The notes below the pieces were generated by a model, which was given only the letters and a program-made list of their open reading frames with translations, did no database searches and had not been told where the DNA came from. A DNA stretch of 64,000 nucleotides from Bacteriovoracaceae bacterium (GTDB lineage: Bacteria > Bdellovibrionota > Bacteriovoracia > Bacteriovoracales > Bacteriovoracaceae): assembly GCA_041546685.1 (NCBI GenBank), contig JBFEVX010000007.1, forward strand, positions 1,759 to 65,758. The letters run 5' to 3'. A program made the position numbers and the translations under genes. Positions 38,521 through 53,639 of the stretch are shown here, one piece after another; the stretch's first letter is position 1, and every line of letters begins with the position of its first letter.

Positions 38521-39582
38521 ATGATGTTTTGGTTAAGAGAAGAAACAAAAGACAACGAAAGAAGAACGGCGCTTACTCCCGATAATGCGAAAAAACTTAT
38601 CGCTGAGACAGGTTGTTCTATTCATGTGGGCTCTTCCAAGGAGCGAATCTTCAGTGATGATGAATATCTCGCTGTAGGATGTAAAATTGTCGAGCCGGGT
38701 AGCTGGAAAAGTGCACCGGAGCAGGATTACATCCTAGGGTTGAAAGAACTGCCTGAGGAAACGGCACCTTTAGTCCATAATCACATATTTTTCGCCCACA
38801 TTTTCAAAGGTCAGGAAGGTTCAAAAGAAATTTTTCAAAGATTCAAAGAAGGCGGTGGTCGCCTGTTCGATCTAGAATTTCTAATGGATGAAAATAGACG
38901 AAGGGTTGCCGCTTTTGGGAAATGGGCCGGATTTGTAGGCGCTGCTGTCGCTGTAGATAGATATTATCAGCGACTAAGTGGAGTTGACCAGGCCAATCCA
39001 CTTACACATTTTGAAAACAAAGATCTCTTAATAAACCAGATCAAAGAAAAACAGGCAAAACATACATCTCGCCCCAAATCGATCATCATTGGAGCCAAAG
39101 GAAGATGTGGCTCTGGTGCGAGAGAGGCCCTGTCTATGTTGGGACTTGAGTCAACCGATTGGGACTTTGAAGAAACCAAGAGAGGTGGTCCCTTTAAAGA
39201 AATCATGGAGCACGAAATTTTCATCAATACAGTTCTCATGATGACGAAGATTCCTCCTTTTCTGGATAAATCGACTCTCGATATTGGAGGTAAACTTGAA
39301 ATCATCTCAGACGTCAGTTGTGACCCCAATAGTGAACTCAATCCAATCCCTCTTTATGATAGATTAGGATCGTGGGAAAACCCATTCATCAAAGCTGAGA
39401 ATAGTGAAGTAGAGATACTGGCGGTTGATAATCTTCCTTCAGTTTTGCCAAGAGAAAGCTCTGAAGACTTCTCTTCTCAACTTCTTCCTCATTTAATCAT
39501 GTTAGCTAGGTCTGGATATGACGCCCTTCCGGTCTGGAAAGGCGCCTTAGAAATTTTTAAAGAAAATTCGAAAAAATACTAA
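38521..39582 (+). CDS. Saccharopine dehydrogenase (NAD+, L-lysine-forming), fungal LYS1 type
   Basis: LREETKDNERRTALTP, SWKSAP...ILGLKELPE, FAHIFKGQ, LFDLEFL...RRVAAFG, IIGAKGRCGSGA, RGGPF and VDNLPSVLPRESSE are collinear with my memory of S. cerevisiae Lys1. Confidence 0.75.
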   Translation: MMFWLREETKDNERRTALTPDNAKKLIAETGCSIHVGSSKERIFSDDEYLAVGCKIVEPGSWKSAPEQDYILGLKELPEETAPLVHNHIFFAHIFKGQEGSKEIFQRFKEGGGRLFDLEFLMDENRRRVAAFGKWAGFVGAAVAVDRYYQRLSGVDQANPLTHFENKDLLINQIKEKQAKHTSRPKSIIIGAKGRCGSGAREALSMLGLESTDWDFEETKRGGPFKEIMEHEIFINTVLMMTKIPPFLDKSTLDIGGKLEIISDVSCDPNSELNPIPLYDRLGSWENPFIKAENSEVEILAVDNLPSVLPRESSEDFSSQLLPHLIMLARSGYDALPVWKGALEIFKENSKKY

Positions 39583-41612
39583 ACCAATCCCGCTCTTTCT
39601 AGAAGAGCTTCAGGTGAAGGTTCTTTCCCTCTAAATTTTTTATAAAGAACCATCGGGTCATCCGAATCCCCTCTAGAGAGAACATTCTCTTTGAATCTTG
39701 TCGCGACGGCCTGATCAAAAATTCCTTCTTCTTTGAAAGCTGCAAATGCATCTGCATCAAGCACTTCGGCCCATTTGTAGCTGTAATATCCAGCTGAGTA
39801 ACCACCACTGAAGATATGCCCAAAGGCGCAAGTTGAACCAGTTCCTTCTACTCGTGGAAGAACTTCTGTTTCTGCTGTTGCCTCTCTTTCAAAATCAGAA
39901 ATATTATTCACGTTTCTCGGATCACCTGAGTGCCATGCCATATCAAGAAGAGCAAAACTCAATTGTCTCAAAGTTGCTCTCCCTTCCTGAAAGGTTCTTG
40001 TTTTAAGTAGCCTTTCAACCAATTCAGTTGGAATTTTTTCCCCAGTTTCATGATGAACAGCAAATGTATCAAGACATTCTTTTTCATAGGCCCAGTTTTC
40101 AAAAATCTGACTTGGAAGTTCTACAAAGTCCCAAGAAACATTTGCACCAGAGAGAGACTCATACTTACATTCAGACAGTAGTCCATGAAGAGCATGGCCA
40201 AACTCATGGAACAATGTTGTCAATTCATTGAAAGTCAAAAGACTCGGACGTGTCTCTGTTGGCTTTGTGAAATTACAAACTATCGCAACATGCGGTCTGA
40301 TATCTTTTTCTTTCGTTCTGTACTGACCTCTAAAATTGGTCATCCAAGCCCCATTTTGTTTACTTGGACGTGAGAAAAGATCTGTATAAAAAACACCAAC
40401 ATGTTTTCCATCGTTTGTCTTAACTTCAAATGTTTTCACATCATCATGGTATACAGGGATGTCTTTTCTTTCCTTGAATTTGATCCCGTAGAGCTTGCTG
40501 GCAACTGTGAAAACACCATCAACACACTTATCGACACTGAAGAAAGGCTTCAATAGTTCATCATCAAGATCATACTTGGCCTTCTTAAGCTTCTCTGACC
40601 AAAAAGTATAATCCCATGGCATGATATCTTCAGGACCACCATTCTCTTTAGAAAAGTCTGTGACTTCTTTCACATCTCTTACTCCAGCTTCTTTCGAGTG
40701 ATTTAAAAGGTCTTTCAAAAAATCAAATACCTGTGCTGGGTTTTTCGCCATTCTTTCTTCTAGTACAAAATCAGCATGTGAATCATAGCCAAGCAGTCTT
40801 GCTCTCTCGAATCTCAATGAAGCTATTTCTTTGACGATAGCTTCATTATTTTGTTCATTTTGCTTCATGCCTCTACTTGTGTAAGCACGATACATTTCCT
40901 CTCTTCTTTTTCTGTTCTCAGAATAAGTCATGAAAGGAATATAGCTTGGAAAATGCAAAGTGAAGATCCACTTACCTTCCATTTCTTTTTCTTTCGCAAG
41001 TTCTGCTGCAGCTTCTCTTACATCTTCAGGAAGTCCTGCCAATTCTGCTTCATCTTCAATCACAAGTTGAAAGTTATTTGTTTCTTTCAAAACATTTTCG
41101 CTGAACTTGACTGTCAGTTTCGATAACTTGTTATCAATCTCTCTCAGTTGATCTTTTTGTGCTTCATTGAGAAGAGCTCCATTTCTGACAAACTCCTTGT
41201 ACTTCTTCTCAAGCAACCTCATCTCTTCACTATCGAGATTGAGATTGTTCTTTTCATCATGAATCTTTCTCACCTTGGCGAATAATTCACTATCAAGAAG
41301 AATGTCATTGGAAAGTTCCGCCAACATTGGAGAAAGTTCACTGGCAATCTTCGCCATCTCATCATTTGTATGAGCGTAATGAAGGTTGAAAAACGTTGAA
41401 GAAACCAGATCAAGAACCTTGCCACAGTTTTCACTGGCTTCAATAACATTGTAGAAAGTTTCTCTTTCAGTTGATGATTTGATTTTTTCCAAATCAGATT
41501 TGACCTCAGCAATCGCGCCTTTAACAGCAGGTAGGAAGTCATCAACTTTAACTTGATGGAATGGTACTGTTTCAAATGGTGTTTCGAATTTCGTAAAAAA
41601 TATATTGTTCAT
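39579..41612 (-). CDS. dcp: M3-family peptidyl-dipeptidase / oligopeptidase
   Basis: 677 aa. HEFGH zinc motif with downstream E (LFHEFGHALHGLL...VELPSQ). Overall length is typical of Dcp/OpdA. Confidence 0.85.
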   Translation of the reverse strand: MNNIFFTKFETPFETVPFHQVKVDDFLPAVKGAIAEVKSDLEKIKSSTERETFYNVIEASENCGKVLDLVSSTFFNLHYAHTNDEMAKIASELSPMLAELSNDILLDSELFAKVRKIHDEKNNLNLDSEEMRLLEKKYKEFVRNGALLNEAQKDQLREIDNKLSKLTVKFSENVLKETNNFQLVIEDEAELAGLPEDVREAAAELAKEKEMEGKWIFTLHFPSYIPFMTYSENRKRREEMYRAYTSRGMKQNEQNNEAIVKEIASLRFERARLLGYDSHADFVLEERMAKNPAQVFDFLKDLLNHSKEAGVRDVKEVTDFSKENGGPEDIMPWDYTFWSEKLKKAKYDLDDELLKPFFSVDKCVDGVFTVASKLYGIKFKERKDIPVYHDDVKTFEVKTNDGKHVGVFYTDLFSRPSKQNGAWMTNFRGQYRTKEKDIRPHVAIVCNFTKPTETRPSLLTFNELTTLFHEFGHALHGLLSECKYESLSGANVSWDFVELPSQIFENWAYEKECLDTFAVHHETGEKIPTELVERLLKTRTFQEGRATLRQLSFALLDMAWHSGDPRNVNNISDFEREATAETEVLPRVEGTGSTCAFGHIFSGGYSAGYYSYKWAEVLDADAFAAFKEEGIFDQAVATRFKENVLSRGDSDDPMVLYKKFRGKEPSPEALLERAGLV

Positions 41613-42862
41613 TCAGAACTCTCCTTAAGTGCAACAATTTGATTCCCCTTTTTAAATAGAGGAACAATGAATCCCAGCCATAATAACAGGGAGATGAATA
41701 AGAGAGTATTAACAAATTTCGGTGATTGAAAAAAGATCAAAATGATCGAGATTAGGCCTTTTCCAAAACGGTAGACAAACATATCCACCACATATTTGGC
41801 CCCATATTTTTGCCTTGCTTCCAAAGGGAAGTACAAGAGCTCTTTAGCTGTTGAAAATATTGAATAATCCAAACCTTTGAACAGAACAAATGTGGCCGCC
41901 ACTGCGATCAGGGAAGACCCAGAGATCACAAATCCGACCAGCGCGATCAGTAAATAAAAGCTCGGGATAAACATGTGAACTGTGCGCTTTTTCACCAGCT
42001 GAAATATAAAAGGGATGACCAACAATTGCACGGCGAGACTTACCGCGTTAATGCTCGAATAAATCAAATTCAGATTTTTAGTTTTCTCCCTCTTAGTTTC
42101 AACAAGGACATCAAATAGTAGGTTGAACTTGAAATTGGCCAAGTTGATGACAAACTGTGAAAGCATAACCACGAGCGCCATTAATATAACGTATTCCTTC
42201 ACTTCTAAGATTGCATGAAGAGGTTTTTCATTGCCTCGTTTGTCTTTATTTTTAGAAAGGCAAAATTCTGACGAAGATAAACCAAAAAAGATCATACTCA
42301 CTATAAGAACCAATGCTCCAGTCATGAGAATCTGATCAGTGTTTATGGTTTGTGTGAGCCGAGAGCCAAGAATCCCTCCTAGCATCCCACCGAAACTACC
42401 TATCGCTCCAAGGGGTCCATAGAAAATTTTCGCCTGTTCTTCTCTAACAGTATTGTTGAGATAACCAATACTCATATGAACTAGAAGAACAATATAGATC
42501 TCCTTCCAAATATAGAGCGGGTATATCAAAAATTTAGAAACCTGGGACATCCAAGGTCCTGCGAGAAAAAAAAGAACCGAAAGTGAACAAGTCCAGTAAT
42601 ATAATTTGTGAGCTGTCAGACGAACTTGAAAATAATTATAGATGGTGATGCACAAACTCAATCCGACAATGGAGTACAACCATACGACAGGAGTGTTCTT
42701 CGCCCCGAAAGCATCAAGAAACATACTTGTGGTAGTCGATCTGATCAGTGGGTAAGTAAAAAGAACAGTGAACATCACCATGCATATTGAGATGACTGTC
42801 TTTTTTGCTTCCGGGTCCAGATTCGCTTGAGTTTTAAAGTCTGCTATAAATTTTTTCAACAT
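41609..42862 (-). CDS. Polytopic transporter, Npt1/Npt2 (TLC ATP:ADP antiporter)-like or MFS
   Basis: 417 aa with ~11-12 TM segments. The N-terminal FTVLFTYPLIRSTTTSMFLDAFGAKNTPVVWLY resembles the TLC-family pattern F-x-ilf-x-Y-x-ilR-x-x-Kd...ga-e-x-ip-x-lk. An ATGA overlap links it to dcp. Confidence 0.4.
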   Translation of the reverse strand: MLKKFIADFKTQANLDPEAKKTVISICMVMFTVLFTYPLIRSTTTSMFLDAFGAKNTPVVWLYSIVGLSLCITIYNYFQVRLTAHKLYYWTCSLSVLFFLAGPWMSQVSKFLIYPLYIWKEIYIVLLVHMSIGYLNNTVREEQAKIFYGPLGAIGSFGGMLGGILGSRLTQTINTDQILMTGALVLIVSMIFFGLSSSEFCLSKNKDKRGNEKPLHAILEVKEYVILMALVVMLSQFVINLANFKFNLLFDVLVETKREKTKNLNLIYSSINAVSLAVQLLVIPFIFQLVKKRTVHMFIPSFYLLIALVGFVISGSSLIAVAATFVLFKGLDYSIFSTAKELLYFPLEARQKYGAKYVVDMFVYRFGKGLISIILIFFQSPKFVNTLLFISLLLWLGFIVPLFKKGNQIVALKESSE

Positions 42863-42942
42863 GAGTCTTCCTTTCCCTTGTGCAAACTCTTGATTATTTA
42901 AGAGTATAATGAAATCACTACATCTTAATCAAAGGACAAATT

Positions 42943-43701
42943 CTGACAGTAGTAAATCCAGAACTCATTGTTGTCATTCCGGCTTACAATGAAGAAGGAT
43001 GTCTCGAAAAAGTCATCGCCGAATGGATCAACGGACTTAGAGGTCTAGGACCTTCGTTTTTAGTTCTTGTAGTCAATGATGGCTCCTCTGACAACACTCC
43101 TGAGATTTTAAGAAATCTTTCGGACACTTATCCAGAACTCAAGTACCAAACACAGGTAAACCAAGGGCACGGAGCTGCTCTTAGAAATGGTTACGACTGG
43201 GCCATGGAATCAAGGCCCAAGTGGATCTTTCATGTGGATAGTGATGATCAATTCAAATATGAAGATTTCCCAAAACTATGGGAGTCAAGAAATCTAGCTC
43301 CAGCTATTTATGGAATTAGAAGCAATCGAAATGATCCCTACCATAGGATAATCATTTCCAGAATTCTTCGTATCATCATCTTCTTGAGTTTTGGAGTTTG
43401 GATTCCTGATGCAAATGTACCCTATCGACTATTATCGAGGGGTTTTTTGGAGTCAGCTCTTAAAAATATTCCAAAAGATTTTTTTGCCCCCAATATCTTT
43501 ATCAGTCTCTTTGCCTTCTCTTTTGAGAGAAAAATCCCGGTATTTCCCGTATCTCACATTGAACGTCAAACTGGACAAATTAGTTTACCAAGCTCAAGAC
43601 TGATCAAGGCCTGTCTTAAATCTCTCTGGGAACTAATCAAATTTAGAATGCAATTCAGAAAGTTTCTAAAGACTATTGATTGGAGGAGTGAGCTTGTCTG
43701 A
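42943..43701 (+). CDS. Family 2 glycosyltransferase (Dpm1/GtrB-like, soluble), non-canonical start codon
   Basis: The frame is open from 42913. It encodes ELIVVIPAYNEEG, VVNDGSSDNT and HVDSDDQ, the GT2 DxD region. There is no in-frame ATG/GTG/TTG before 43204. CTG 42943 and ATT 42940 follow AAAGGA at 42931-42936. Confidence 0.7.
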   Translation: MTVVNPELIVVIPAYNEEGCLEKVIAEWINGLRGLGPSFLVLVVNDGSSDNTPEILRNLSDTYPELKYQTQVNQGHGAALRNGYDWAMESRPKWIFHVDSDDQFKYEDFPKLWESRNLAPAIYGIRSNRNDPYHRIIISRILRIIIFLSFGVWIPDANVPYRLLSRGFLESALKNIPKDFFAPNIFISLFAFSFERKIPVFPVSHIERQTGQISLPSSRLIKACLKSLWELIKFRMQFRKFLKTIDWRSELV

Positions 43702-45061
43702 TCGATTGAATTCCAAATATCTCATCATCGGAGCTGGACCTTGCGGTCTTGGAGCTGCTTGGCATTTCAGCAAGCAGAATGAAGCTGATTGGATGATCTT
43801 TGAAAAAGAAAATCACGCAGGAGGGCTTGCGACCAGTTTTGTCGATGACAAGGGATTTACTTGGGATATTGGTGGCCACGTTCAATTTAGTCACTATGAT
43901 TATTTTGATCAGGTCATGGACGATGCTCTCGGGAAAGAAGGATGGCTCCATCACATGAGGTCATCATGGGTTTGGATTAAAGATAGATTTGTTCCGTATC
44001 CGTTTCAAAACAATATTCACAGACTACCTGAAGTTGAAAGAAATGAATGTCTTGAAGGACTTGAAAACCTTCCCAAGCAAGTTGAATTAAATAACTTCAA
44101 AGACTGGTTAACAGCTTCCTTTGGAACCGGAATATGCAAGCACTTCCTCTACCCTTATAACTTCAAAGTTTGGGCCTACGATCCTTCAATTATGAATTAC
44201 AAGTGGATAGGTGAAAGAGTCAGTGTAGTAGATATAGATCGCATTAAAGAAAATATCAAACTAGATCGCGATGATGTTTCGTGGGGTCCCAACAATACTT
44301 TCAAATTTCCAAAGAATGGTGGTACTGGAGCCATATGGAATTCGGTTGCTTCTAAAATGGATCAAAGTCGAATTCAATATAATGAAGAACTACTCAATGT
44401 CGATGTGGATAGCAAACTTGCGTATTTCAAGAGTGGAAAAGTCGTCAAATATGAGAAGTTAATTTCCACAATGCCATTGGATCAACTCTGTAAAAAGATT
44501 TCCAATGATGAGTACAAAAATCTTGCAAAAGTTTCAGCCGGTCTCAAATATTCATCTACCCATGTGATAGGACTCGGCTTGAAGGGACAAGCTCCTGAAA
44601 GTCTTTCAGACAAATGCTGGATGTACTTTCCTGAAAGCGATTCCCCTTTTTATAGAGTGACAGTATTTTCAAACTACTCACCAAATAATGTTCCTGACTC
44701 AAAAAAATATTTTTCTTTGATGGCGGAAGTTAGTGAATCTTCAGAAAAACCTGTCGATTCGTCGAAAATCATTGAAGAAACTGTTAAAGGTGCAATTAGT
44801 TCTAAATTGATGGAAGCGAATACTGAAATAACATCCGCCTGGCATTTAAGGATGGAGTATGGATACCCAACCCCATCTCTTGAAAGAGACTCCATATTGA
44901 ATCAGGTTATCCCAAAATTGGATGCTGTAGATGTCTATTCAAGAGGTCGCTTCGGCGGATGGAAATATGAAGTCAGTAATCAGGACCATACTTTCATGCA
45001 AGGAGTGGAATGGGCTGAATATATGCTGACGGGAAAGGATGAGGATACGTACCAGCTATGA
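43694..45061 (+). CDS. glf: UDP-galactopyranose mutase, eukaryote-type
   Basis: IIGAGPCGLGAA, YPFQNN, IGERV, WGPNNTFKFPKNGGTG, YSSTHVIGLG, DKCWMYFPE, PFYRVTVFSNYSP, EVSESS, GYPTPSLER and SRGRFGGWKYEVSNQDHTFMQGVE are collinear with my memory of Aspergillus fumigatus UGM. TTG 43694 follows GGAGGAG; the track start is TTG 43676. Confidence 0.8.
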   Translation: MSDRLNSKYLIIGAGPCGLGAAWHFSKQNEADWMIFEKENHAGGLATSFVDDKGFTWDIGGHVQFSHYDYFDQVMDDALGKEGWLHHMRSSWVWIKDRFVPYPFQNNIHRLPEVERNECLEGLENLPKQVELNNFKDWLTASFGTGICKHFLYPYNFKVWAYDPSIMNYKWIGERVSVVDIDRIKENIKLDRDDVSWGPNNTFKFPKNGGTGAIWNSVASKMDQSRIQYNEELLNVDVDSKLAYFKSGKVVKYEKLISTMPLDQLCKKISNDEYKNLAKVSAGLKYSSTHVIGLGLKGQAPESLSDKCWMYFPESDSPFYRVTVFSNYSPNNVPDSKKYFSLMAEVSESSEKPVDSSKIIEETVKGAISSKLMEANTEITSAWHLRMEYGYPTPSLERDSILNQVIPKLDAVDVYSRGRFGGWKYEVSNQDHTFMQGVEWAEYMLTGKDEDTYQL

Positions 45062-46815
45062 ACGAGAGTAAACAAAGCCGGAACCAAATTTACTGGGTTT
45101 TACTTGGAGTCATCATCTTCCTTGGCATTTTTGCACGCTTTTTCATGCTTGCAGATCGGCCTTTTCACCATGATGAATCTTTGAACGCTATTTACGGCAG
45201 ATATTTTTATAATCATCCCACCACACAATTTTATAAATATGATCCAATGTTACACGGACCATTTCTTTATAATCTGTATCCATTTTTTTATCAGATCTTT
45301 GATGAGTCCAAGGCTACAGCAAGACTTGTAATGGCCCTAATGGGAAGTTTTCTGATCTTTGTTCCTTTTATACTTAGAAGGTATTTAAATCGTACCACCT
45401 TGTTTCTGGCGACACTCTTTATAGCCTTCAGTCCGACTTTAGTTTACTGGTCACGCTTTGTCCGTCATGACCCTCCTGTATTAATCTGTCTGGCACTTCT
45501 GATAATTGGATGGTTCAGCAACTCATCATGGAAAAAGTCCTTTCTTTGGACATGGGGTCTTATCCTCCCCTTTACCATGAAAGAGAATGCCTACGTTCAC
45601 GTAGCGATCTTCATGGGATATCTGATCTATGAATTGATTCTCAACTCTCTTTTAAAACTTGAAATCGACACTCTCACTTCCAAGACCATTAAATTCTGTA
45701 AAGAAAATACTTTCAAAGTTCTCATCGGAATTTTCTCTGCTTCATTCATTTATGTAATTCTCTATTCAGCATGGTTTAGTCACCCTGAAGGAATTCTTGA
45801 TGGAATTTATCGCAAAAGTCTTGCCTACTGGCTGAACCAGCATCACAAAGACAGAATTGCTGGACCATTTATTTTCCAGTTTTTAATGCTTAGCTGGTAT
45901 GAACAAGTTTTTATACTCATGATCTTTGTTCAAACCGCTCATTTTTATTTAAGAAGAAGTTTTCAAGTCAGAGGAACTTTTGTAGCTTTGATTCTTCTTT
46001 CAATCATAGCCAAGTATCTAAGTCCCACTGATATACCAAATACCAGTTTCCTCTCAGGTATCTTGAAAATCAAAATTTCATTGGATTTCTATCCATTCAT
46101 TTTATTGCTTGGTCACTCAGTATTGATGACCACTGTATTTTTAATTGAAAGAAAACGTGACTTGGCACTGACAGGATATCTCTTCACCTCATTCTTTTTC
46201 ACATACAGCCTGGTAGGAGAAAAGGTTCCTTGGCTCTCAGTATATCCTCTCTTCATGGGAATTCTTTTTTTGTGTGTTTATATTTCTAAAGAATGTCAGC
46301 TTTCTTTTGATCGAAACAAAACATTAAAATTGGCAGTTGTTGTTCTTACCATTTTTCAAGTAAGAATGATGATCATTACAAATTACTCACGCGCGGGAGC
46401 AGATACAGAATTTATCAGTCAAGTTCATACTTCAAGAGATTATGAAAATGTCGCTTATCAGATAAAGAAAGAGATTCAGTCACCTCTTGGCAGGAAGCCT
46501 CTTGTGATGGCAATGGAGCATAATACCTGGCCTCTCACTTGGTACTTATACGGACTCGAGCAATACAATTACATCAAGGGCAATAGAGAACTCCGTGACT
46601 TTGATTATGTTCTGACTTCTACAACTGATTCAGCGACAGGTGCCGAACTCAAAATGACACATACAAGAACAGATGTATCACTCAGACATTGGTGGCTTCC
46701 AGATTATAAAAGAATGACATTTAGAAATTATATGAACTATGCACTTCATCACAATCCCTGGACAGTTCCTGGAAAAATGGACATCAGTGTCTACAAGAAA
46801 GTGGCTATTGAATAA
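45058..46815 (+). CDS. TIGR03663/Agl23-like GT-C-fold polytopic membrane protein (PMT_2-like)
   Basis: 585 aa with >12 hydrophobic segments. N-terminal RPFHHDESLNAIYG...YDPMLHGPFLY is the motif I associate with TIGR03663. An ATGA overlap links it to the mutase gene. Confidence 0.55.
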   Translation: MNESKQSRNQIYWVLLGVIIFLGIFARFFMLADRPFHHDESLNAIYGRYFYNHPTTQFYKYDPMLHGPFLYNLYPFFYQIFDESKATARLVMALMGSFLIFVPFILRRYLNRTTLFLATLFIAFSPTLVYWSRFVRHDPPVLICLALLIIGWFSNSSWKKSFLWTWGLILPFTMKENAYVHVAIFMGYLIYELILNSLLKLEIDTLTSKTIKFCKENTFKVLIGIFSASFIYVILYSAWFSHPEGILDGIYRKSLAYWLNQHHKDRIAGPFIFQFLMLSWYEQVFILMIFVQTAHFYLRRSFQVRGTFVALILLSIIAKYLSPTDIPNTSFLSGILKIKISLDFYPFILLLGHSVLMTTVFLIERKRDLALTGYLFTSFFFTYSLVGEKVPWLSVYPLFMGILFLCVYISKECQLSFDRNKTLKLAVVVLTIFQVRMMIITNYSRAGADTEFISQVHTSRDYENVAYQIKKEIQSPLGRKPLVMAMEHNTWPLTWYLYGLEQYNYIKGNRELRDFDYVLTSTTDSATGAELKMTHTRTDVSLRHWWLPDYKRMTFRNYMNYALHHNPWTVPGKMDISVYKKVAIE

Positions 46816-47563
46816 TCAGATAAAAATCAGAAACAGTACTACCTTTTTCTCTTACAATACCTGCACCTTTATTGATATCAAGACTTCTTGATCTATTGTT
46901 CAAGTCTTGAACCATCTGGCCAATATTGATTTTCATTCCTTTAGAAGTATTGACTGAAGTCGATAGAGCGGAAGCCCCAGATTCCAAAGAAAGTTCAATT
47001 CGATGTGTACTTCCTAGAACATGACAAGTAACAAATATTTCTTGATCATCCATCCGAAGCCTTCCCTGAACCCCAGAAGTCAGAAGCAGAGAAGATCGAC
47101 TAACACCACCAGATTTGGATCTGGTTCTTTTTAATCTGTTTTTTGAACCTACTGAAGCTTCATCATTGGTTGCATCCGATTTACTGACTCGCTCAACGGT
47201 CATTCGACACATCGGCATCTGACCCATTGCTTGATTTTTCTCTACAACTCCATCTGTTCGATAAATCCTTATGGGTTTGTACTTTTTATAGATCCAAGTT
47301 TCGAAAAGCTCTTCTCGAACATCACTGACAGTCACTTCAATACAATTCATACTTGGTCGCTCGTAGATCTTGTCGTTTCGAGAAAGTATCGGACTCAAAT
47401 GTGACTTAACTGCCCTCAGTGAAACATTGTTTTCAAAACAATAGCCCTTGAGAGATTGAGCTTTGGCAGTAAATGAAAAGAAAATAATAAGTAAAAGTTG
47501 AAGACTATTCTTCAAGATACTTGTCACCTTTTTGATCTTCCATAAAGGACTCTGCATTTTCAT
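46805..47563 (-). CDS. Secreted hypothetical protein
   Basis: 252 aa with signal peptide ...LLLIIFFSFTAKAQS. It overlaps the upstream regulator gene's 3' end by ~59 nt and the convergent GT-C gene by 11 nt. Confidence 0.55.
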   Translation of the reverse strand: MKMQSPLWKIKKVTSILKNSLQLLLIIFFSFTAKAQSLKGYCFENNVSLRAVKSHLSPILSRNDKIYERPSMNCIEVTVSDVREELFETWIYKKYKPIRIYRTDGVVEKNQAMGQMPMCRMTVERVSKSDATNDEASVGSKNRLKRTRSKSGGVSRSSLLLTSGVQGRLRMDDQEIFVTCHVLGSTHRIELSLESGASALSTSVNTSKGMKINIGQMVQDLNNRSRSLDINKGAGIVREKGSTVSDFYLIIQ

Positions 47564-48029
47564 ATGAACAAAGATCCAATGTTGTTTGGAATTTGAATTC
47601 AGGTGGAAGTTTTCCCACCTTGCTCAGGTCCTCACAAGTACAGGCGAGCTTTTTCATAAAGTTGAAAAATTTATGACTTGTCTCTGGACTCATCAAATGT
47701 TCCATCTGACAGCTGTCTTTTTCTGCAACTTCTTCTTCGACTCCAACAAAGTCACGAAGGAAGTAAAAAAGCAGCGTTCTTGAACTCAAAATTCTATGAA
47801 CTTCATCATGCCCAAGATCTGTCAGAACGAGGAATTTCGAATCCTCTTCTTCCATCACCAGGCCTTTTTTCTTGAGATTATTGATCGCTGTAGAGACACT
47901 TCCCTTGGTCAAATCAAGATCCTTGGCGATATCAGTAACCCGGGCATAACCTCTCCCTTCCTTCAATTTATGGATGGTAAGTAGGTAGTGAACCATTGAG
48001 TGAGATAGGTCAGTATCTTTAGCAGTCAT
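47505..48029 (-). CDS. DtxR/MntR-family metal-dependent transcriptional regulator
   Basis: SMVHYLLTIHKLKEGRGYARVTDIAKDLDLTKGSVSTAINNLKKKGLV is a DtxR-type winged HTH. The ATG at 48029 is preceded by GGAGAG with a 5-nt spacer; the track start at 48122 adds an implausible N-terminus. Confidence 0.7.
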   Translation of the reverse strand: MTAKDTDLSHSMVHYLLTIHKLKEGRGYARVTDIAKDLDLTKGSVSTAINNLKKKGLVMEEEDSKFLVLTDLGHDEVHRILSSRTLLFYFLRDFVGVEEEVAEKDSCQMEHLMSPETSHKFFNFMKKLACTCEDLSKVGKLPPEFKFQTTLDLCSYENAESFMEDQKGDKYLEE

Positions 48030-48120
48030 ATGCTCTCCAAGGGGAAAAACGCTCAAATGCCTGTATTCAGGCCCCGATTGCCACATTATGTTGCCTGCAC
48101 ATCCTACCAAAAAGTGACGC

Positions 48121-48145
48121 AAAATTGAACTAAATGCTCAATTTT
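48121..48145. promoter_or_regulatory. 25-bp palindrome in divergent promoter region (candidate operator of the DtxR-family regulator)
   Basis: AAAATTGAAC-TAAAT-GCTCAATTTT: 10-nt arms with one mismatch. It lies ~92 nt upstream of the regulator start and ~85 nt upstream of the 48230 gene. Confidence 0.4.
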
Positions 48146-48229
48146 AGGAGGGCGTTGTCTAGGCTGTTTTTTCACTGTCAGAGATCTAGCTTCAGGGTGG
48201 TAAAATAAGGGCAACCAAGGGTAATCACT

Positions 48230-49798
48230 ATGAAAGCACCGAAAACAAAAATTATTTACGCGGTTTTATCCCTTCTTATTGCCACTTCAGTCTCAGCGCA
48301 GATTGTAGGTGTCGTTCGAGGTGGTCAGGACAACAATCCTGAAAATCTCAATGACAAGGATAAATACGTTTCTGAAAACTACATTCACGAGGGCTATCTT
48401 CAAAGAGAAAAAGAAGAAGCTTGTGCTGGAGATAAAAAGGCCTGTGCTGGTACGGACGTCGGAAACCAAAGTGTAAAGATGATCGCCAAAGCTTTCGGGA
48501 TGATCGTTGGTATGCTTCCAGGTGATGGTGCTTTCAAAGAAGGTGTCAAAGGAGCTGATGGAAAACCTAAAATGGACAGCGAAGGAAAGGCCGAAGAAAA
48601 AGAGAAACAAGATTACTGCCGATATATTGCTGTCGGTACTGAAATGGTTGCCCAATTTCAACAACAAGCAGCTCAAACGGAAATGAGCTCGATTCCAGTT
48701 AAGAAAGAAACTGCTCAAAAAGAAAGTTTGGATCGTGCCGCTCGTTCACACGAGTCTAGAGCGAAGAACGCAGAATATCAGGTAGTCGGCTGGGGTGCTA
48801 CGACAGTCTGTTATGGATACATGGCCGCTACGGCTAGTTCAATCGGAACTATGGGTTGGGTGAAACTTGGTATGGCCGGACTTATGACTGGCTTTTACAT
48901 GTCAGAAGTAAAGAAACACAAAGACGCAGCTTCAAAAGTAAGAGGTATCGCCGACAAGCTAGCAGGTGCCGGAGATTGTAACCCAGTAACACAGAAAAAC
49001 TGTTACTGTGCACAGCCTGAAACAATGAATGATGTGACTGTTTGTATGCCACAAATCAGAAAGCGCCAGATTGCGGCCAATGCTGTTCAAGTCGCTTGTA
49101 TGGATAATAAAATGAATCCTGATCCAAAATGTAATTGTGTGACTACAGATACATGTTTCGACAAGGAATTCATCAACAACATTGATGGGCTGAACTTTGG
49201 AGAAGGTTTCAATCAAGGCGTAACTGGACCTCTAAGAAAAATCGCTCGTGGTGAGCTTACTCAAGGAAACCTCTCAGGAAGTGCGACAAGACAAGCTGCT
49301 CTTGCGAAACAGGCCATGAGAAAAATCAAACCTATTCCTTTCGATCAAGAACTTAATAAAGATCAAAAACAGGAAGCATTGGCCCTAACAAAAATGGGTC
49401 TTCCCGCATCCATTGCAGGGAAAGTTGCAGCGACAAGAGTTTCTTCAAGCTCTCTACAAGGAGTTAGAAGCAGACTTGGGAATGTTCAGTATTCTGCTGT
49501 TGGGAAGAGTGCCTACAGAGGCAGCAGAAGAGGAAGAGATAAAGTACTCACTTTCAGTGGAAGTGGCTCAGGACTTACCGGATCTAGAAAAAGCGGTTCT
49601 TCATCTGGGGTCAACTTCAATAAGTTCCTTAAGCGTGGAAAAAAGCGTGGACCAAAAGGTGGGAAAGTTCTCTCTTTCAGAGACAAAGCTTCAAGAAGTG
49701 GTTCTGCTCAAATCTCAAAAGACAGCGACAGAAGCGTATTTGATATCGTATCAAGAAGATACATGATTTCAGGATGGGGACGACTCGAACTGGATTAA
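48230..49798 (+). CDS. Secreted Cys-rich hypothetical protein with basic G/S/R/K-rich C-terminal region
   Basis: 522 aa. Signal peptide ...IATSVSAQ, a central hydrophobic segment, and a cluster of Cys (CNPVTQKNCYCAQ...CMPQ...CMDN...CNCVTTDTC). Confidence 0.6.
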   Translation: MKAPKTKIIYAVLSLLIATSVSAQIVGVVRGGQDNNPENLNDKDKYVSENYIHEGYLQREKEEACAGDKKACAGTDVGNQSVKMIAKAFGMIVGMLPGDGAFKEGVKGADGKPKMDSEGKAEEKEKQDYCRYIAVGTEMVAQFQQQAAQTEMSSIPVKKETAQKESLDRAARSHESRAKNAEYQVVGWGATTVCYGYMAATASSIGTMGWVKLGMAGLMTGFYMSEVKKHKDAASKVRGIADKLAGAGDCNPVTQKNCYCAQPETMNDVTVCMPQIRKRQIAANAVQVACMDNKMNPDPKCNCVTTDTCFDKEFINNIDGLNFGEGFNQGVTGPLRKIARGELTQGNLSGSATRQAALAKQAMRKIKPIPFDQELNKDQKQEALALTKMGLPASIAGKVAATRVSSSSLQGVRSRLGNVQYSAVGKSAYRGSRRGRDKVLTFSGSGSGLTGSRKSGSSSGVNFNKFLKRGKKRGPKGGKVLSFRDKASRSGSAQISKDSDRSVFDIVSRRYMISGWGRLELD

Positions 49799-49813
49799 TT
49801 TCAAAAGGAAGTC

Positions 49814-50218
49814 ATGGAAGACTCAACCAAACAGACAACATTTCATGCGACATTTCATCCGACTCTTTTTTACGATTCTGAATGTGGCCTGTGTCTGAGA
49901 TTCAAACAGGCACTTGATCGTTTACCAGGCACAGATAAAATCAAAAAGGTCAGCATTCACGAGCCAGAAGCATTCAAGTCATTCCCTGAGCTTTCTAAAG
50001 AAAAGTGTGAAAAAGAAGTCCATCTAGTTGATGAGAACGGCAAGATTCTCGTTGGCGAAGAAGTCGTTGAATATCTCATTTCCAAGTTTCCAGGAGTCGA
50101 GAAATTCTCATGGTTGCTTGAAAGTGGCATGGGCCAAAAAGCCGTTGAGTACTTCAATACCATCGCTAAATTGACCAGAGAAACGTTGCGAAAGCGTTGT
50201 AGCACATGTAAAAATTAG
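49814..50218 (+). CDS. DCC-family thiol-disulfide oxidoreductase (DUF393)
   Basis: 134 aa. LFYDSECGLCLRF matches the DCC1-like C-x-x-C N-terminal motif. Confidence 0.65.
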   Translation: MEDSTKQTTFHATFHPTLFYDSECGLCLRFKQALDRLPGTDKIKKVSIHEPEAFKSFPELSKEKCEKEVHLVDENGKILVGEEVVEYLISKFPGVEKFSWLLESGMGQKAVEYFNTIAKLTRETLRKRCSTCKN

Positions 50219-50236
50219 CCATACATTTGGAGAATT

Positions 50237-50971
50237 ATGCTGCCCTTCGACAAAACACTGGTTATTATCCCGACCTATAATGAAATCGATAATATCGAGC
50301 GCATGATCACAACTATGTTGACCATGCACCAAGGAATCTCTCTTCTCATTATCGAAGACGGATCTCCAGATGGAACTGCCGATGTCGTTAAGCGACTACA
50401 AAAAGAATACCCTGACAATCTCCATATGATCCAAAGAACCGGTAAGCTTGGTCTTGGAACTGCTTATGTCACAGGATTCAAATGGGCACTCGAAAGAGAG
50501 TATGAGTTTGTTTTCGAAATGGACTGTGACTTTTCACATGATCCCAAGCAAGTTCCTGATCTCTTAGAAGCAGCACAGAGCAACGACCTCGTTATTGGCT
50601 CTAGATATATCGATGGCATTAGAATCATCAATTGGCCGTTCAGAAGACTTCTCCTCTCCTATCTGGCCAGTATCTATACTCGTTTTGTCACAGGTATTCC
50701 TGTACAAGATACGACAGGTGGATTCAAGTGCTTCACCAGAAAAGCTCTTAGCTCACTCAATCTAGATAACATCGTTTCTACCGGGTACATTTTCCAACTC
50801 GAGCTCAACTATAAGATTTGGTCACTCGGTATGAATGTCAAAGAAGTTCCAATCATTTTTTATGAAAGACGTGATGGGCAATCCAAAATGGCCGGTGGGA
50901 TCATTTTTGAAGCTCTATTCGCTGTGCTTCGTCTTCGAGTCATGAAGAGCCTAGGCACACTTCTGAAATAG
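50237..50971 (+). CDS. Polyprenol/dolichol-phosphate mannose synthase-like GT2 (Dpm1/Ppm1 type)
   Basis: LVIIPTYNEIDNI, IIEDGSPDGT, GKLGLGTAY and FEMDCDFSHDP are classic Dpm1-type motifs. 244 aa, soluble form. Confidence 0.8.
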   Translation: MLPFDKTLVIIPTYNEIDNIERMITTMLTMHQGISLLIIEDGSPDGTADVVKRLQKEYPDNLHMIQRTGKLGLGTAYVTGFKWALEREYEFVFEMDCDFSHDPKQVPDLLEAAQSNDLVIGSRYIDGIRIINWPFRRLLLSYLASIYTRFVTGIPVQDTTGGFKCFTRKALSSLNLDNIVSTGYIFQLELNYKIWSLGMNVKEVPIIFYERRDGQSKMAGGIIFEALFAVLRLRVMKSLGTLLK

Positions 50972-51009
50972 CAGTCTGACGACTTCAAAAGCAAAAGATC
51001 AAAGCCTGA

Positions 51010-51711
51010 TTATCTTTCGAAAGATTTACGTGAAAATAGCTGTCTATTCAGTGGTCCAAAACACATGAGAAGAAAGATCCAACAACCACCAAACTCTAGA
51101 ATCTCACCTTTTCTTCCTGAGTCGATAAATTTAACGATAATCGCTAGAAGTATATAGGCAACAATATGAAAAAGTTTAGGGACGGGAATTGCAAATTTAT
51201 CAACAAAGTTTCTGACTCTCCCGGCCTGCACATATAGAAATGGCATGACTAGAAAATAGAGAACAACCAAAATTCCAAGGAATGTTCCGAAGATATATCT
51301 GTTTACCTTGAAGTCTCCGAACTTCAGGTTGTGAATATTAAATTCACCTTGAGTGTTATGAATTTTGAACCATTCAGGAGTTTCAAAGCCAATGATTCGT
51401 TGACCATAACTGATTTCTTCAAGAGCACCGAATAGAAAAACAAAACCCATCATCACAAGGCAGAAAGCAAAGAACTTTCCCCTGAAAGGTTTTAAGATAT
51501 TTGCCCTGTGCCAACATAGAATTGATCCAAGCAAGAGAGCGAGGAAAGTCAGATATTCTATCCAACCATCTTCAGTCACATAGACATGCTCATAAAAATG
51601 CTTATTGGTGTAACTTAAAATCATCCCCACGATGGCCACAAGAAAGACCAGAATGAACATGACCAGTTCGTTCTTTTTGATATTTGTAAGGCTGGCGAGC
51701 ATTTCTTTCAA
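51010..51711 (-). CDS. Polytopic membrane protein, unknown function
   Basis: 233 aa with ~6 hydrophobic segments. A 4-nt overlap links it to rpiB. Confidence 0.6.
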   Translation of the reverse strand: MKEMLASLTNIKKNELVMFILVFLVAIVGMILSYTNKHFYEHVYVTEDGWIEYLTFLALLLGSILCWHRANILKPFRGKFFAFCLVMMGFVFLFGALEEISYGQRIIGFETPEWFKIHNTQGEFNIHNLKFGDFKVNRYIFGTFLGILVVLYFLVMPFLYVQAGRVRNFVDKFAIPVPKLFHIVAYILLAIIVKFIDSGRKGEILEFGGCWIFLLMCFGPLNRQLFSRKSFER

Positions 51712-52145
51712 AACACTTCTCCGAGATTTTCAAACTTGGCTAGTCTGTCAGTATGTCTTCCACCTTCGAACTCTGCTTCAAACCAGGCATCAACCATCGC
51801 CCTGATTTCTTCTGCGGAATTGATTCTGGCACCAAGACAAAGAACATTGGCGTCATTGTGTTGCCTAGAAAGTCTGGCCTCTTCAGGGGTTCTAACTAGT
51901 GCTGCTCTAATTCCCTTGTAGCGGTTTGCTACAATCGAAACACCGATTCCTGATCCACAAAGAAGAATCCCTGGGATCTTCTCTTCAACAACCCTTTTGG
52001 CAACCTTGCTGGCATAGTCGGGATAATCACATCTCTCATCTGAGTATGTTCCTTCATCAAGAACTTCAAACTTTGATTCGAGATATTTCTTAAGCTCTTC
52101 TTTGCCTTCAAAGGCAGCGTGATCACATCCGAGGGCTACTTTCAC
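51708..52145 (-). CDS. rpiB: Ribose-5-phosphate isomerase B
   Basis: ALGCDHAAF, CGSGIGVSIVANR and NDANVLCLGAR motifs of the RpiB/LacAB family. GTG start preceded by GGAG. Confidence 0.9.
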   Translation of the reverse strand: MKVALGCDHAAFEGKEELKKYLESKFEVLDEGTYSDERCDYPDYASKVAKRVVEEKIPGILLCGSGIGVSIVANRYKGIRAALVRTPEEARLSRQHNDANVLCLGARINSAEEIRAMVDAWFEAEFEGGRHTDRLAKFENLGEVF

Positions 52146-52157
52146 AATAACTCCACT

Positions 52158-52191
52158 AAAAAACCCCGGCCACGTACAACGTGAACCGGGG
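52158..52191 (-). terminator. Rho-independent terminator downstream of ahcY
   Basis: Stem CCCCGG-c-CACGT (52164-52175) / ACGTG-aa-CCGGGG (52179-52191). The A-run at 52158-52163 gives a U-run on the minus strand. Confidence 0.7.
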
Positions 52192-52201
52192 CGATTTCAA
52201 A

Positions 52202-53497
52202 TTAGTATCTGTAATGTTCTGGCTTGAAAGGACCTTCAGGGTTAATACCTAGGTATTCAGCTTGTCCTGAAGTAAGAACGTCGATCTCAACACCAATTTT
52301 TGCAAGGTGAAGTCTCGCTACTTTTTCATCTAGATGCTTTGGAAGCATGTAAACTTTGTTTTCGTATTTGTCACAGTTCTCCCAAAGCTCAAGTTGAGCA
52401 ATCACCTGGTTGGTGAATGAGTTACTCATAACAAATGAAGGGTGACCTGTAGCACATCCAAGGTTCACCAGACGACCTTGAGCAAGAAGGATGATTCTTC
52501 TTCCATCTTTTGAAGTGTACTGATCAACTTGTGGTTTGATGTTGTCTTCAGTGTAGTTTTCATGAAGATGCTTGATGTGGATTTCAGAGTCAAAGTGACC
52601 GATGTTACAAACGATCGCTCCGTCCTTCATGGCATCAAGATGCTTAGGCGCGATAACATCGTAACAACCAGTTGTTGTAACGAAGATGTCTCCAAGCTTG
52701 GCAGCATCGTCCATTTTCATTACTTCGTAACCTTCCATCGCTGCTTGTAGAGCACAGATAGGATCGATTTCAGTAATGATAACACGTCCACCTTGTCCTC
52801 TTAGAGACTGAGCAGAACCCTTACCAACGTCACCGTAACCAGCAACAACACAAACTTTACCAGCAACCATTACGTCAGTTGCTCTCTTGATACCGTCAAT
52901 CAAAGACTCTCTACATCCGTAAAGGTTGTCGAACTTTGACTTGGTAACAGAGTCATTGATGTTGATAGCTGGAATTGGAAGAGTACCTTTTTGAACTCTT
53001 TCATAAAGTCTATGAACACCTGTTGTTGTTTCTTCAGAAAGTCCTCTGATTCCTTCAACGTATTGTGGGAATCTGTCGAGAACCATGTTTGTCAGGTCTC
53101 CACCATCATCAAGAATCATGTTAAGTGGTGATCCGTCTGCCCATGTAAGAGTTTTCTCAATACACCAGTCGAACTCCTCTTCGTTCATACCTTTCCAGGC
53201 AAAAACAGGAATTCCTGCAGCAGCGATGGCCGCAGCAGCGTGATCTTGAGTTGAATAGATATTACATGAAGACCATCTTACTTCAGCTCCAAGAGCAGTA
53301 AGTGTCTCAATAAGGACAGCTGTTTGGATTGTCATGTGAAGACAACCAGCAATCTTGGCACCTTTAAGAGGTTGGCTTGGACCAAATTCTTCTCTAAGAG
53401 ACATTAGTCCTGGCATTTCGCTTTCTGCGATTGTGATTTCTTTTCTACCCCATTCGGCCAAAGAAATATCGGCTACTTTGTAATCTGTAAAAGTCAT
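52202..53497 (-). CDS. ahcY: Adenosylhomocysteinase
   Basis: [17 protein letters not shown], the NAD-binding GYGDVGKG and a C-terminal ...PFKPEHYRY are characteristic. The ATG at 53497 is preceded by GGAGGA; the track start at 53542 adds a T-rich extension. Confidence 0.92.
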
Positions 53498-53639
53498 GTT
53501 TCCTCCAACCGTTGTTGTCCCGGTTTCTGTCGTAGTTTGCATTTTACTATCCTTAATATACTGATTATTTGTCCCGCCACTATAACAAATAAAAACGCCG
53601 ATCTACAAGCTTCCAGCAGTATTCTAGCCGCAATTTCCC

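Follow-up and report, generated by a model that had tools for sequence, protein, structure and literature searches.

What does an operon do that brings together a soluble glycosyltransferase, a sugar mutase and a polytopic membrane protein? The question is raised by three overlapping genes of a Bacteriovoracaceae bacterium, found in a 64,000-nucleotide stretch of contig JBFEVX010000007.1 (hereafter the window). The first gene (GT2a; 42943..43701, plus strand) encodes a soluble family-2 glycosyltransferase (GT2) of 252 residues, which we propose to be a polyprenyl-phosphate-galactofuranose synthase. The second (43694..45061, plus strand) encodes a UDP-galactopyranose mutase (UGM) of 455 residues and of the trypanosomatid/fungal structural type, and the third (gene 3; 45058..46815, plus strand) a 585-residue membrane protein of the TIGR03663/Agl23 family with a predicted GT-C fold, the proposed periplasmic galactofuranose (Galf) transferase and possibly also a flippase. 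The operon probably specifies a pathway of galactofuranosylation outside the cytoplasm, with a lipid-linked monosaccharide as the donor.

Three-component glycosylation by way of lipid-linked monosaccharides is well known from the Arn, Gtr, CsbB/YfhO, GacI/GacL, Dpm1/PMT and Agl22/Agl23 systems, and arabinose provides a known case of a furanose lipid donor. To our knowledge, every characterised galactofuranosyltransferase uses UDP-Galf directly, at the cytoplasmic face or, after transport, in the Golgi lumen. Our literature search found no paper on undecaprenyl-phosphate-Galf, C55-phosphate-Galf or lipid-linked galactofuranose, nor one that ties TIGR03663 or Bdellovibrio-like organisms to Galf.

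Predicted classes of the three gene products

An earlier interpretation made from the letters of the DNA alone (hereafter the sequence-only reading) had assigned gene 1 to the GT2 enzymes that charge polyprenyl phosphates with a sugar, and profile search and predicted fold both bear this out. GT2a matches Pfam PF00535 with 72 bits, and D99-S100-D101, N16-E17 and D46-G47-S48, which represent the family-2 signature and the D-x-D metal site, are invariant among 97 homologues. Searched against the PDB, the profile of these homologues finds ArnC at E = 4e-22 (profile positions 5–229 onto ArnC 8–226), GtrB at 6e-15 and an archaeal dolichol-phosphate-mannose synthase at 5e-10; non-lipid GT2 enzymes align only over its first 100–125 positions. 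The alignment with ArnC takes in the motifs R-x-x-R-x-D-x-x-x-R and H-x-E-R-x-x-G, and we take the C-terminal motifs (the H/Y-x-E-R-x-x-G-x-S loop) to be a hallmark of the class. With the AlphaFold model of GT2a (mean predicted local distance difference test score, pLDDT, 94.1) as the query, the top 23 Foldseek matches are all ArnC, GtrB or dolichol-phosphate-mannose synthase, with TM-scores (TMq) of 0.70–0.79 to ArnC/GtrB and 0.73 to dolichol-phosphate-mannose synthase and best root-mean-square deviations of 2.4–3.8 Å, followed by RmlT, chondroitin polymerase and TarS at TMq ≤ 0.59. GT2a is also weakly similar to a haloarchaeal dolichyl-phosphate-hexose transferase model (E = 3e-4), to which GT2b, a second soluble GT2 of the window, is closer (E = 4e-11). 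Taken together, sequence and model support the assignment of GT2a to the polyprenyl-phosphate glycosyltransferases of GT2, the class of ArnC, GtrB and dolichol-phosphate-mannose synthase.

The GT2 family also holds known Galf transferases, and in Mycobacterium tuberculosis the glf gene adjoins the GT2 gene glfT2. Both points speak for a different account, in which GT2a is an ordinary galactofuranosyltransferase that, like GlfT1/GlfT2 or WbbI, moves Galf from UDP-Galf straight onto a cytoplasmic or lipid-linked oligosaccharide, with the GT-C protein acting afterwards on the finished glycan. We consider this very improbable: GT2a has only about 250 residues and is aligned over its whole length with ArnC, including the segments after the catalytic core; GlfT2, whose structure has been solved, is absent from the 27 profile matches and the top 50 Foldseek matches of GT2a; and no gene for an initiating phosphoglycosyl transferase, Wzx, Wzy or an ABC exporter lies near the trio.

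The second gene product, which had been read as a UDP-galactopyranose mutase, indeed aligns over residues 1–451 with the enzyme of Trypanosoma cruzi (PDB 4dsg) at E = 2.5e-145. The match to the Aspergillus fumigatus enzyme (3uka; E = 8e-131) is split into two stretches by a fungal insertion that is missing from the window protein. G13, G15, P16 and G18 of the FAD-binding GxGxxG motif are invariant among the bacterial homologues. The active-site table of the A. fumigatus enzyme comprises H63, F66, R91, F158, M159, Y162, N163, W167, R182, P206, N207, W315, Y317, R327, E373, Y419, R447, Y453, N457 and Q458 (PMC3322874), and in the pairwise alignment the window protein has the same residue at 20/20 of these positions (among them H62, F65, R89, F151, Y155, N156, W160, R175, N200, W309, Y311, R321, E345, Y391, R419, Y425, N429 and Q430). 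Fifteen of the 20 positions are invariant over 20 bacterial homologues (including H62, F65, R89, R175, N200, W309, Y311, R321, Y391, R419, Y425 and N429), over which P154, at the M159 column of the alignment's list, is nearly invariant.

The model for classical bacterial Glf, TIGR00031, gives the window protein 25.6 bits against a cut-off of 303.75, and Pfam GLF does not match it; judged by its sequence, the mutase is a UGM outside the classical bacterial Glf subfamily. It resembles the T. cruzi and A. fumigatus enzymes in its full-length homology and identical active-site residues, and differs from them in being bacterial, in its length of about 455 residues, in lacking the fungal insertion and in sharing an operon with a lipid-carrier GT2. 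The label "eukaryote-type UGM" of the sequence-only reading is misleading, since the type is widespread in bacteria: all 8000 of the 8000 candidate clusters scored fall at E ≤ 1e-10. An origin of the window mutase as a horizontally acquired eukaryotic gene is ruled out by thousands of bacterial relatives in many phyla, with 52–60% identity. Source databases label bacterial UGMs of this type "FAD-dependent oxidoreductase", "protoporphyrinogen oxidase" or "amine oxidase", and no NCBIfam model reaches its cut-off, which amounts to an annotation gap. Thousands of bacterial UGMs of "eukaryotic" type are at present annotated merely as FAD-dependent or protoporphyrinogen oxidases.

Gene 3 had been placed in the TIGR03663/Agl23/PMT_2-like GT-C group, and this placement held up. 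Residues 16–502 match TIGR03663 with 228.8 bits (cut-off 126.25), PMT_2 lies just over its threshold at 27.1 bits, and a sequence search of the PDB gave no match. The AlphaFold model (pLDDT 94.4; predicted TM-score, pTM, 0.93) consists of about 13 transmembrane helices and a C-terminal alpha/beta domain at 445–585. Its top 29 Foldseek matches in the PDB are all GT-C glycosyltransferases (E = 5.9e-7 to 0.16), among them ALG9, STT3, Pmt4, ArnT, PglB, AglB, AftA, EmbC, EmbB, AftB and PimE; MurJ and other transporters appear at noise level only. TMq is 0.36–0.46 for full-length matches and 0.27–0.33 for weaker or partial ones, moderate values that do not single out a GT-C subfamily. The acidic residues expected in the first loop of a GT-C enzyme are present: H38, D39 and E40 follow directly on the first transmembrane helix and are invariant in 93 homologues, as are G67, P68, R89, K175, R266, E388 and W392. 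The H38-D39-E40 loop would be periplasmic if the N-terminal residues K5 and R8 obey the positive-inside rule. Family match and predicted structure support the view that gene 3 encodes a TIGR03663 family member with the fold of the GT-C glycosyltransferase superfamily.

The mutase position next to GT2a

Co-occurrence of the genes was examined in two scans. In a scan with the UGM alignment, which took one genome per species and found at least 594 relatives from many phyla, a GT2a homologue lies immediately upstream of the UGM in 38 of the best 80. These 38 loci come from Bdellovibrionota, Bacteroidota, Verrucomicrobia, Planctomycetota, Gammaproteobacteria and Gemmatimonadota, with Chitinophagales, Aquirufa, Cytophagales and Halieaceae among them, and their GT2a proteins show 30–85%, mostly 38–53%, identity. 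A second scan, of metagenomes with the GT2a alignment, yielded 29 determinable lineages, defined as clusters at 70% identity. A mutase follows GT2a directly in 20 of them: of the window's type in 14, classical Glf in three and mixed in three, the remaining nine having neither.

At four loci (L120, L130, L146 and L149), GT2a is followed directly by a gene for a classical bacterial Glf, to which TIGR00031 gives 441, 339, 312 and 312 bits, respectively, each time above its cut-off of 303.75; Pfam GLF matches both of the proteins scanned with it, those of L146 and L120. A search for classical Glf in the 8-kb flanks of the GT2a loci without the window's mutase type found only these four adjacent cases. 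In GT2a, L146 shares 85% identity with L048, where the other UGM type occupies the same slot. Two very distantly related mutases in one slot point to their being interchangeable at the position after GT2a.

Among 1.84 billion representative proteins, an exhaustive profile search picked out 1159 GT2a relatives at E ≤ 1e-30, the top 150 of which were inspected. One of the proteins found (P0499, 664 residues; L165 6089–8083) is a fusion of GT2a with Glf, in which phmmer places the GT2a domain at 11–232 and Pfam places Glycos_transf_2 at 14–171 and GLF at 436–637. It is surrounded by genes for two PMT_2 GT-C proteins, two other polytopic proteins, a methyltransferase and a UbiA prenyltransferase, a locus that recalls the mycobacterial arabinogalactan locus. 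Sixteen of the 150 top representatives (P0438, P0457, P0465, P0466, P0470, P0476, P0478, P0480–P0482, P0492, P0506 and others) have 610–745 residues, with a GT2a domain followed by an extra C-terminal region that, by a crude hydropathy count, is polytopic in 15/16, usually with 7–12 hydrophobic segments; the region of P0438 gives a weak PMT_2 match. These long relatives may be fusions of a lipid-sugar synthase with a GT-C protein. Further GT2a fusions are with LPG_synthase_TM (P0496), UbiA (P0376) and a methyltransferase (P0405).

A TIGR03663 protein stands beside the GT2a-UGM pair in 10 of the best 80 loci of the UGM scan, mostly in Bdellovibrionota-type genomes, the others being L041 (labelled "Pseudomonadota") and L059 ("Deltaproteobacteria"). 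Elsewhere the pair has polytopic neighbours from other GT-C families: PMT_2 proteins in L015, L021 (two copies), L038 and L064 and, weakly, in L079; a DUF2298 protein in L041; and, directly downstream of it in the Planctomycetota locus L054 (9389–12439), a 1016-residue protein with a GT87 (66–320) and a PMT_2-like (560–707) region. Over both scans, 123 polytopic neighbours were counted at 118 GT2a loci, compared with 12 at 38 loci with UGM only. After dereplication, the neighbours of GT2a include 14 TIGR03663 proteins and, by Pfam, 8 PMT_2, 3 DUF2298, 1 GT87, 11 Acyl_transf_3 and 6 MauE proteins. Among the 12 at UGM-only loci no GT-C protein was found; Wzx-type Polysacc_synt, Bac_transf and ABC-2 exporters occur there, which are components of conventional cytoplasmic pathways.

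These distributions lend support to the central idea of the sequence-only reading, in which a lipid carrier is charged from UDP-Galf and then serves a GT-C protein: the GT2-UGM pair recurs beside different GT-C families over a wide range of phyla, classical Glf takes the UGM slot at four loci, GT2a and Glf are fused among PMT_2 genes, and relatives of GT2a are fused to polytopic membrane domains. A broader proposal, on which our confidence is evenly balanced, is that GT2a represents a widespread and unrecognised family of polyprenyl-phosphate-galactofuranose synthases that, with either mutase, feeds diverse GT-C proteins (TIGR03663, PMT_2 and GT87) in several bacterial phyla. If so, extracytoplasmic galactofuranosylation would be a general bacterial process, and Agl23-type proteins would be glycosyltransferases rather than, or besides, flippases.

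A cluster of Cytophagales shows a related arrangement (L048 4338–13764, L067, L073, L076, L133, L146, L152 and L155–L162). Here the order is a polytopic protein of 540–590 residues, Acyl_transf_3, GT2a, a mutase of either type or none, and a protein of about 900 residues that has no Pfam match; in L048, L067 and L073 an MBOAT-family protein comes next. The motifs P-x-x-D-D and N-E-H-R-I are invariant in the polytopic protein, which also lacks a Pfam match and might represent a GT-C protein that has gone unrecognised; profile-profile comparison with TIGR03663/GT-C gave a probability of 1.2%, and a profile search of the PDB returned nothing meaningful.

A proposed lipid-linked Galf pathway and what weighs against it

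In the proposed pathway, the mutase, whose family and active site are described above, would convert UDP-galactopyranose into UDP-Galf in the cytoplasm. GT2a, as a peripheral membrane enzyme, would then move Galf from UDP-Galf to polyprenyl phosphate, probably undecaprenyl phosphate, at the inner face of the membrane, a role to which its fold class, genomic partners and fusions point. The resulting polyprenyl-phosphate-Galf might, more speculatively, be flipped to the periplasmic face, where the TIGR03663 protein would transfer Galf to a periplasmic acceptor, which may be lipid A or the lipopolysaccharide (LPS) core, another glycan or a protein; its fold and the invariant first-loop Asp-Glu suggest this last step. 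If both transferases invert like characterised members of their families, the donor would be beta-D-Galf-phosphate-polyprenol and the product would have an alpha-D-Galf linkage. The lipid A of Bdellovibrio carries mannose in place of phosphate. By way of speculation, either lipid A or the LPS core would then be a plausible acceptor, and GT2b a plausible mannose-lipid synthase.

Polyprenyl-phosphate-Galf would be a new intermediate, parallel to decaprenyl-phosphate-arabinofuranose and undecaprenyl-phosphate-aminoarabinose, and would explain the addition of Galf to periplasmic or surface acceptors. The genomic signature extends beyond the predatory lineage, to Bacteroidota, Verrucomicrobia, Planctomycetota, Gammaproteobacteria and others, and its presence in cultivated Aquirufa and Pseudarcicella strains, such as Aquirufa aurantiipilula 15D-MOB (L058), A. 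beregesia 50C-KIRBA (L077) and Pseudarcicella hirudinis E92 (L048), makes the hypothesis directly testable. Galf is missing from mammals, and Galf pathways are therefore of interest as drug and diagnostic targets.

Several known systems resemble this scheme. In the ArnC/ArnT system (with ArnA and ArnB), an unusual UDP-sugar is likewise made, a GT2 enzyme loads undecaprenyl phosphate and a 13-helix GT-C enzyme passes the sugar on in the periplasm. By sequence and by fold alike GT2a matches ArnC best, and the best structural matches of gene 3 include ArnT. In the window, however, the sugar would be Galf supplied by a mutase, GT2a lacks the C-terminal transmembrane helices of ArnC, there is no ArnE/F-like flippase, and the GT-C protein belongs to TIGR03663 rather than to the ArnT family. 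Mycobacteria also pass a furanose from a polyprenyl-phosphate donor, decaprenyl-phosphate-arabinofuranose, to extracytoplasmic GT-C enzymes of the Emb and Aft type, and AftA, AftB, EmbC and EmbB are among the fold matches of gene 3, while the fusion locus L165 shares a UbiA gene and GT-C genes (the two PMT_2) with the mycobacterial-type pathway. Decaprenyl-phosphate-arabinofuranose arises on the lipid itself, where UbiA and the DprE1/E2 epimerase make it from phosphoribosyl pyrophosphate; no GT2 produces it from a UDP-furanose. The Galf of mycobacteria is attached in the cytoplasm, with UDP-Galf as the donor of GlfT1 and GlfT2. GtrA/GtrB/GtrC, CsbB/YfhO and GacI/GacL combine a GT2 polyprenyl-phosphate-monosaccharide synthase with an extracytoplasmic GT-C transferase (PMC10821137), and GtrB is one of the top fold matches of GT2a. 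Those systems carry glucose, N-acetylglucosamine or galactopyranose and have a small GtrA- or Wzx-type flippase, whereas the window operon has no flippase gene nearby and contains an embedded nucleotide-sugar mutase. Finally, gene 3 is above the cut-off of TIGR03663, the family of Agl23, which with Agl22 forms a system of Haloarcula hispanica; Agl22 is reported to take part in the synthesis of hexose-phosphate-dolichol intermediates and Agl23 in their use or flipping. That system is archaeal and dolichol-based, handles glucose or galactose, is described as having a flippase in Agl23 and involves no mutase.

A number of observations weigh against the proposed pathway. The most direct ones concern the mutase. 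No mutase lies within 8 kb of GT2a in 9 of the 29 lineages, and the same conserved clusters, namely those of Bacteriovoracia, the Aquirufa-like group and Cytophagales, occur with and without UGM. GT2a stands directly against the TIGR03663 gene, without an intervening mutase, in L103, L123, L091 and L145, the first two of which share the synteny of the window; this could be a mutase-less form of the operon, or the mutase could have been relocated within these genomes. GT2a operons of the L095 and L133 types also lack an adjacent mutase. No alignment column separates GT2a proteins with an adjacent mutase from those without, and the two are intermixed in a neighbour-joining tree that follows taxonomy, so that GT2a might use another UDP-hexose or the mutase might be encoded elsewhere. 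GT2a itself has no transmembrane anchor: its model shows no hydrophobic C-terminal helix beyond H217-242, and the C-terminal transmembrane helices that ArnC, GtrB and the archaeal dolichol-phosphate-mannose synthase share as a class feature are missing. Anchor-less members of the class exist, human DPM1 and M. tuberculosis Ppm1 being examples, and membership of GT2a in the class is compatible with this lack. Among the flanking open reading frames (ORFs) of the operon and in the syntenic loci there is no GtrA-like or Wzx-like small flippase. Within the clade, synteny of the trio is weak evidence for a functional link because the whole neighbourhood of about 15 kb is syntenic (see below), and gene 1 has no canonical start codon. 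Lastly, we infer the pathway throughout, including the roles of the GT2a family and of the bacterial UGMs of this type.

The findings on the mutase would be accommodated if GT2a and the GT-C protein formed an Agl22/Agl23-like system for an ordinary polyprenyl-phosphate-hexose (galactopyranose, glucose or mannose), the mutase being merely co-located and supplying UDP-Galf to cytoplasmic galactofuranosyltransferases encoded elsewhere. The mutase-less operons, the lineages without an adjacent mutase and the missing sequence signature all favour such a system, as does the presence of the UGM family in conventional Wzx or ABC-transporter clusters. We nevertheless regard it as unlikely. Across many phyla the position of the mutase is constant, always directly downstream of GT2a and often overlapping it; two distantly related mutase types fill this one slot; a GT2a-Glf fusion protein exists; and no cytoplasmic glycosyltransferase is encoded near the window trio.

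For the proposed pathway, the role of the TIGR03663 protein also has to be considered. The lack of a GtrA- or Wzx-type flippase gene nearby suggests that this protein may itself flip lipid-linked Galf, as is reported in vitro for archaeal Agl23. H. hispanica Agl23 is presented as a putative hexose-phosphate-dolichol flippase, not as a transferase, which tells against a transferase; the purified protein is said to translocate a lipid-linked oligosaccharide in proteoliposomes (PMC11182771). NCBIfam names TIGR03663 "flippase activity-associated protein Agl23", and within the family flippase activity is reported for the archaeal protein only. The sequence-only reading had predicted periplasmic transfer by this protein; the fold agrees with this, but the activity reported for Agl23 (PMC11182771) is flipping. 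It could accordingly be that polyprenyl-phosphate-Galf is made as proposed and that the TIGR03663 protein is only a flippase or scramblase, the Galf transferase being encoded elsewhere, an account to which the published flippase activity, the family name and the lack of another flippase gene in the flanking ORFs all lend weight. We hold this to be quite improbable, given that the predicted fold matches GT-C glycosyltransferases only, that H38-D39-E40 and many residues of the loops and the C-terminal region are invariant, and that PMT_2 or GT87 GT-C enzymes adjoin GT2a-UGM in other phyla. The operon in this way bears on whether proteins of the Agl23 family are flippases or transferases.

Gene starts and conserved neighbourhood

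All three plus-strand frames are present where the sequence-only reading had placed them, and they overlap as it described. ATG at 45058–60 and TGA at 45059–61 form an exact ATGA between the mutase and the GT-C gene, and the 8-nucleotide overlap at 43694–43701 lies between the TTG start of the mutase at 43694 and the GT2a stop codon TGA at 43699–43701. This TTG is preceded by GGAGG at 43682–86, seven bases upstream, and a start here gives 455 residues, which agrees in length with P0121, a database protein of 100% identity, and with its relatives; GTG 43688 and TTG 43676 are the other in-frame candidates.

The start of GT2a is less clear. Position 42943, from which the sequence-only reading had the gene begin, is a CTG, and the frame has no ATG, GTG or TTG from the in-frame stop at 42910–12 to the ATG at 43204. 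The program-made ORF list accordingly gives GT2a as 165 residues only, and the sole 100%-identical database record (P0247) is a C-terminal fragment of that length. At 42949–51 the window reads GTA, whereas the codon in its closest relative, L005, is GTG. The frame is open from 42913 and encodes a complete N-terminal strand with the motif VVIPAYNEE. An AAAGGA box at 42931–36 is common to the window and L005 and is followed by an in-frame ATT (42940) and the CTG (42943); it lies in the intergenic region that the operon shares with a divergent TLC-like transporter gene (42863..42942), which is 93% identical to that of L005, the AAAGGACAAATTCTGACAGT stretch included. With no canonical start, translation of GT2a begins at ATT 42940 or CTG 42943, or the assembly contains an error, or the gene is damaged.

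Damage would mean that the window's module is inactive, its GT2a gene having lost the start codon and being in decay. The absence of ATG, GTG and TTG over 42913–43203, the 165-residue length of the only identical record and the replacement of the GTG used by L005 by GTA are what such decay would leave. We nonetheless find it extremely improbable: the frame runs without frameshift or stop through every conserved N-terminal motif, the Shine-Dalgarno-like box ahead of ATT and CTG is conserved, the downstream genes are intact and overlapping, and a genome assembled from metagenomic reads may just as well contain a consensus error of one base. The closest relatives of the window are themselves metagenome-assembled genomes, labelled Bacteriovoracaceae or "Deltaproteobacteria". 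In a scan of 42500–48300, promoter and terminator sites were no more frequent than in shuffled sequence. The G+C content of the window is about 40%.

The trio is kept in the same order and with tight spacing in relatives from Bacteriovoracia and Oligoflexia, down to 35–39% identity of the GT-C protein, so that the synteny expected by the sequence-only reading is found elsewhere. It forms part of a block of about 15 kb (window 39579–53542) that is syntenic across Bacteriovoracia (L001, L002, L003, L005, L009 and L036). The block begins with an M3 peptidase, the TLC-like transporter, the trio, a secreted protein of 230–250 residues and MntR, and continues with a secreted Lys/Ser/Gly-rich protein of 520–640 residues, a DCC1-like thiol oxidoreductase, GT2b, RpiB and adenosylhomocysteine hydrolase.

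GT2b (50237..50971, plus strand), a second soluble GT2 of 244 residues and of the Dpm1/Ppm1-like polyprenyl-phosphate-mannose-synthase type, had been recognised as a separate synthase downstream of the operon and is real: residues 6–234 match PDB 5mlz at E = 1.9e-31. It is unusually conserved, with 78–96% identity in the syntenic relatives, and only 26% identical to GT2a. Although it is the gene that most resembles dolichol-phosphate-mannose synthase, GT2b was rejected as the lipid-sugar synthase of the operon: 3.4 kb and divergently oriented genes separate the two, and outside Bacteriovoracia it does not accompany the mutase.

On its 3' side, the GT-C gene overlaps by 11 nucleotides (46805–46815) with the end of a convergent gene, which encodes a 252-residue signal-peptide protein without a family match and is kept in most Bacteriovoracia loci. 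On the other side, 80 bp from the operon and divergent from it, lies the gene for the TLC-like membrane protein (41609..42862, minus strand; 417 residues, about nine hydrophobic segments). This protein matches the TLC ATP/ADP-transporter family with 43.7 bits and MFS more weakly, and its position is kept in Bacteriovoracia.

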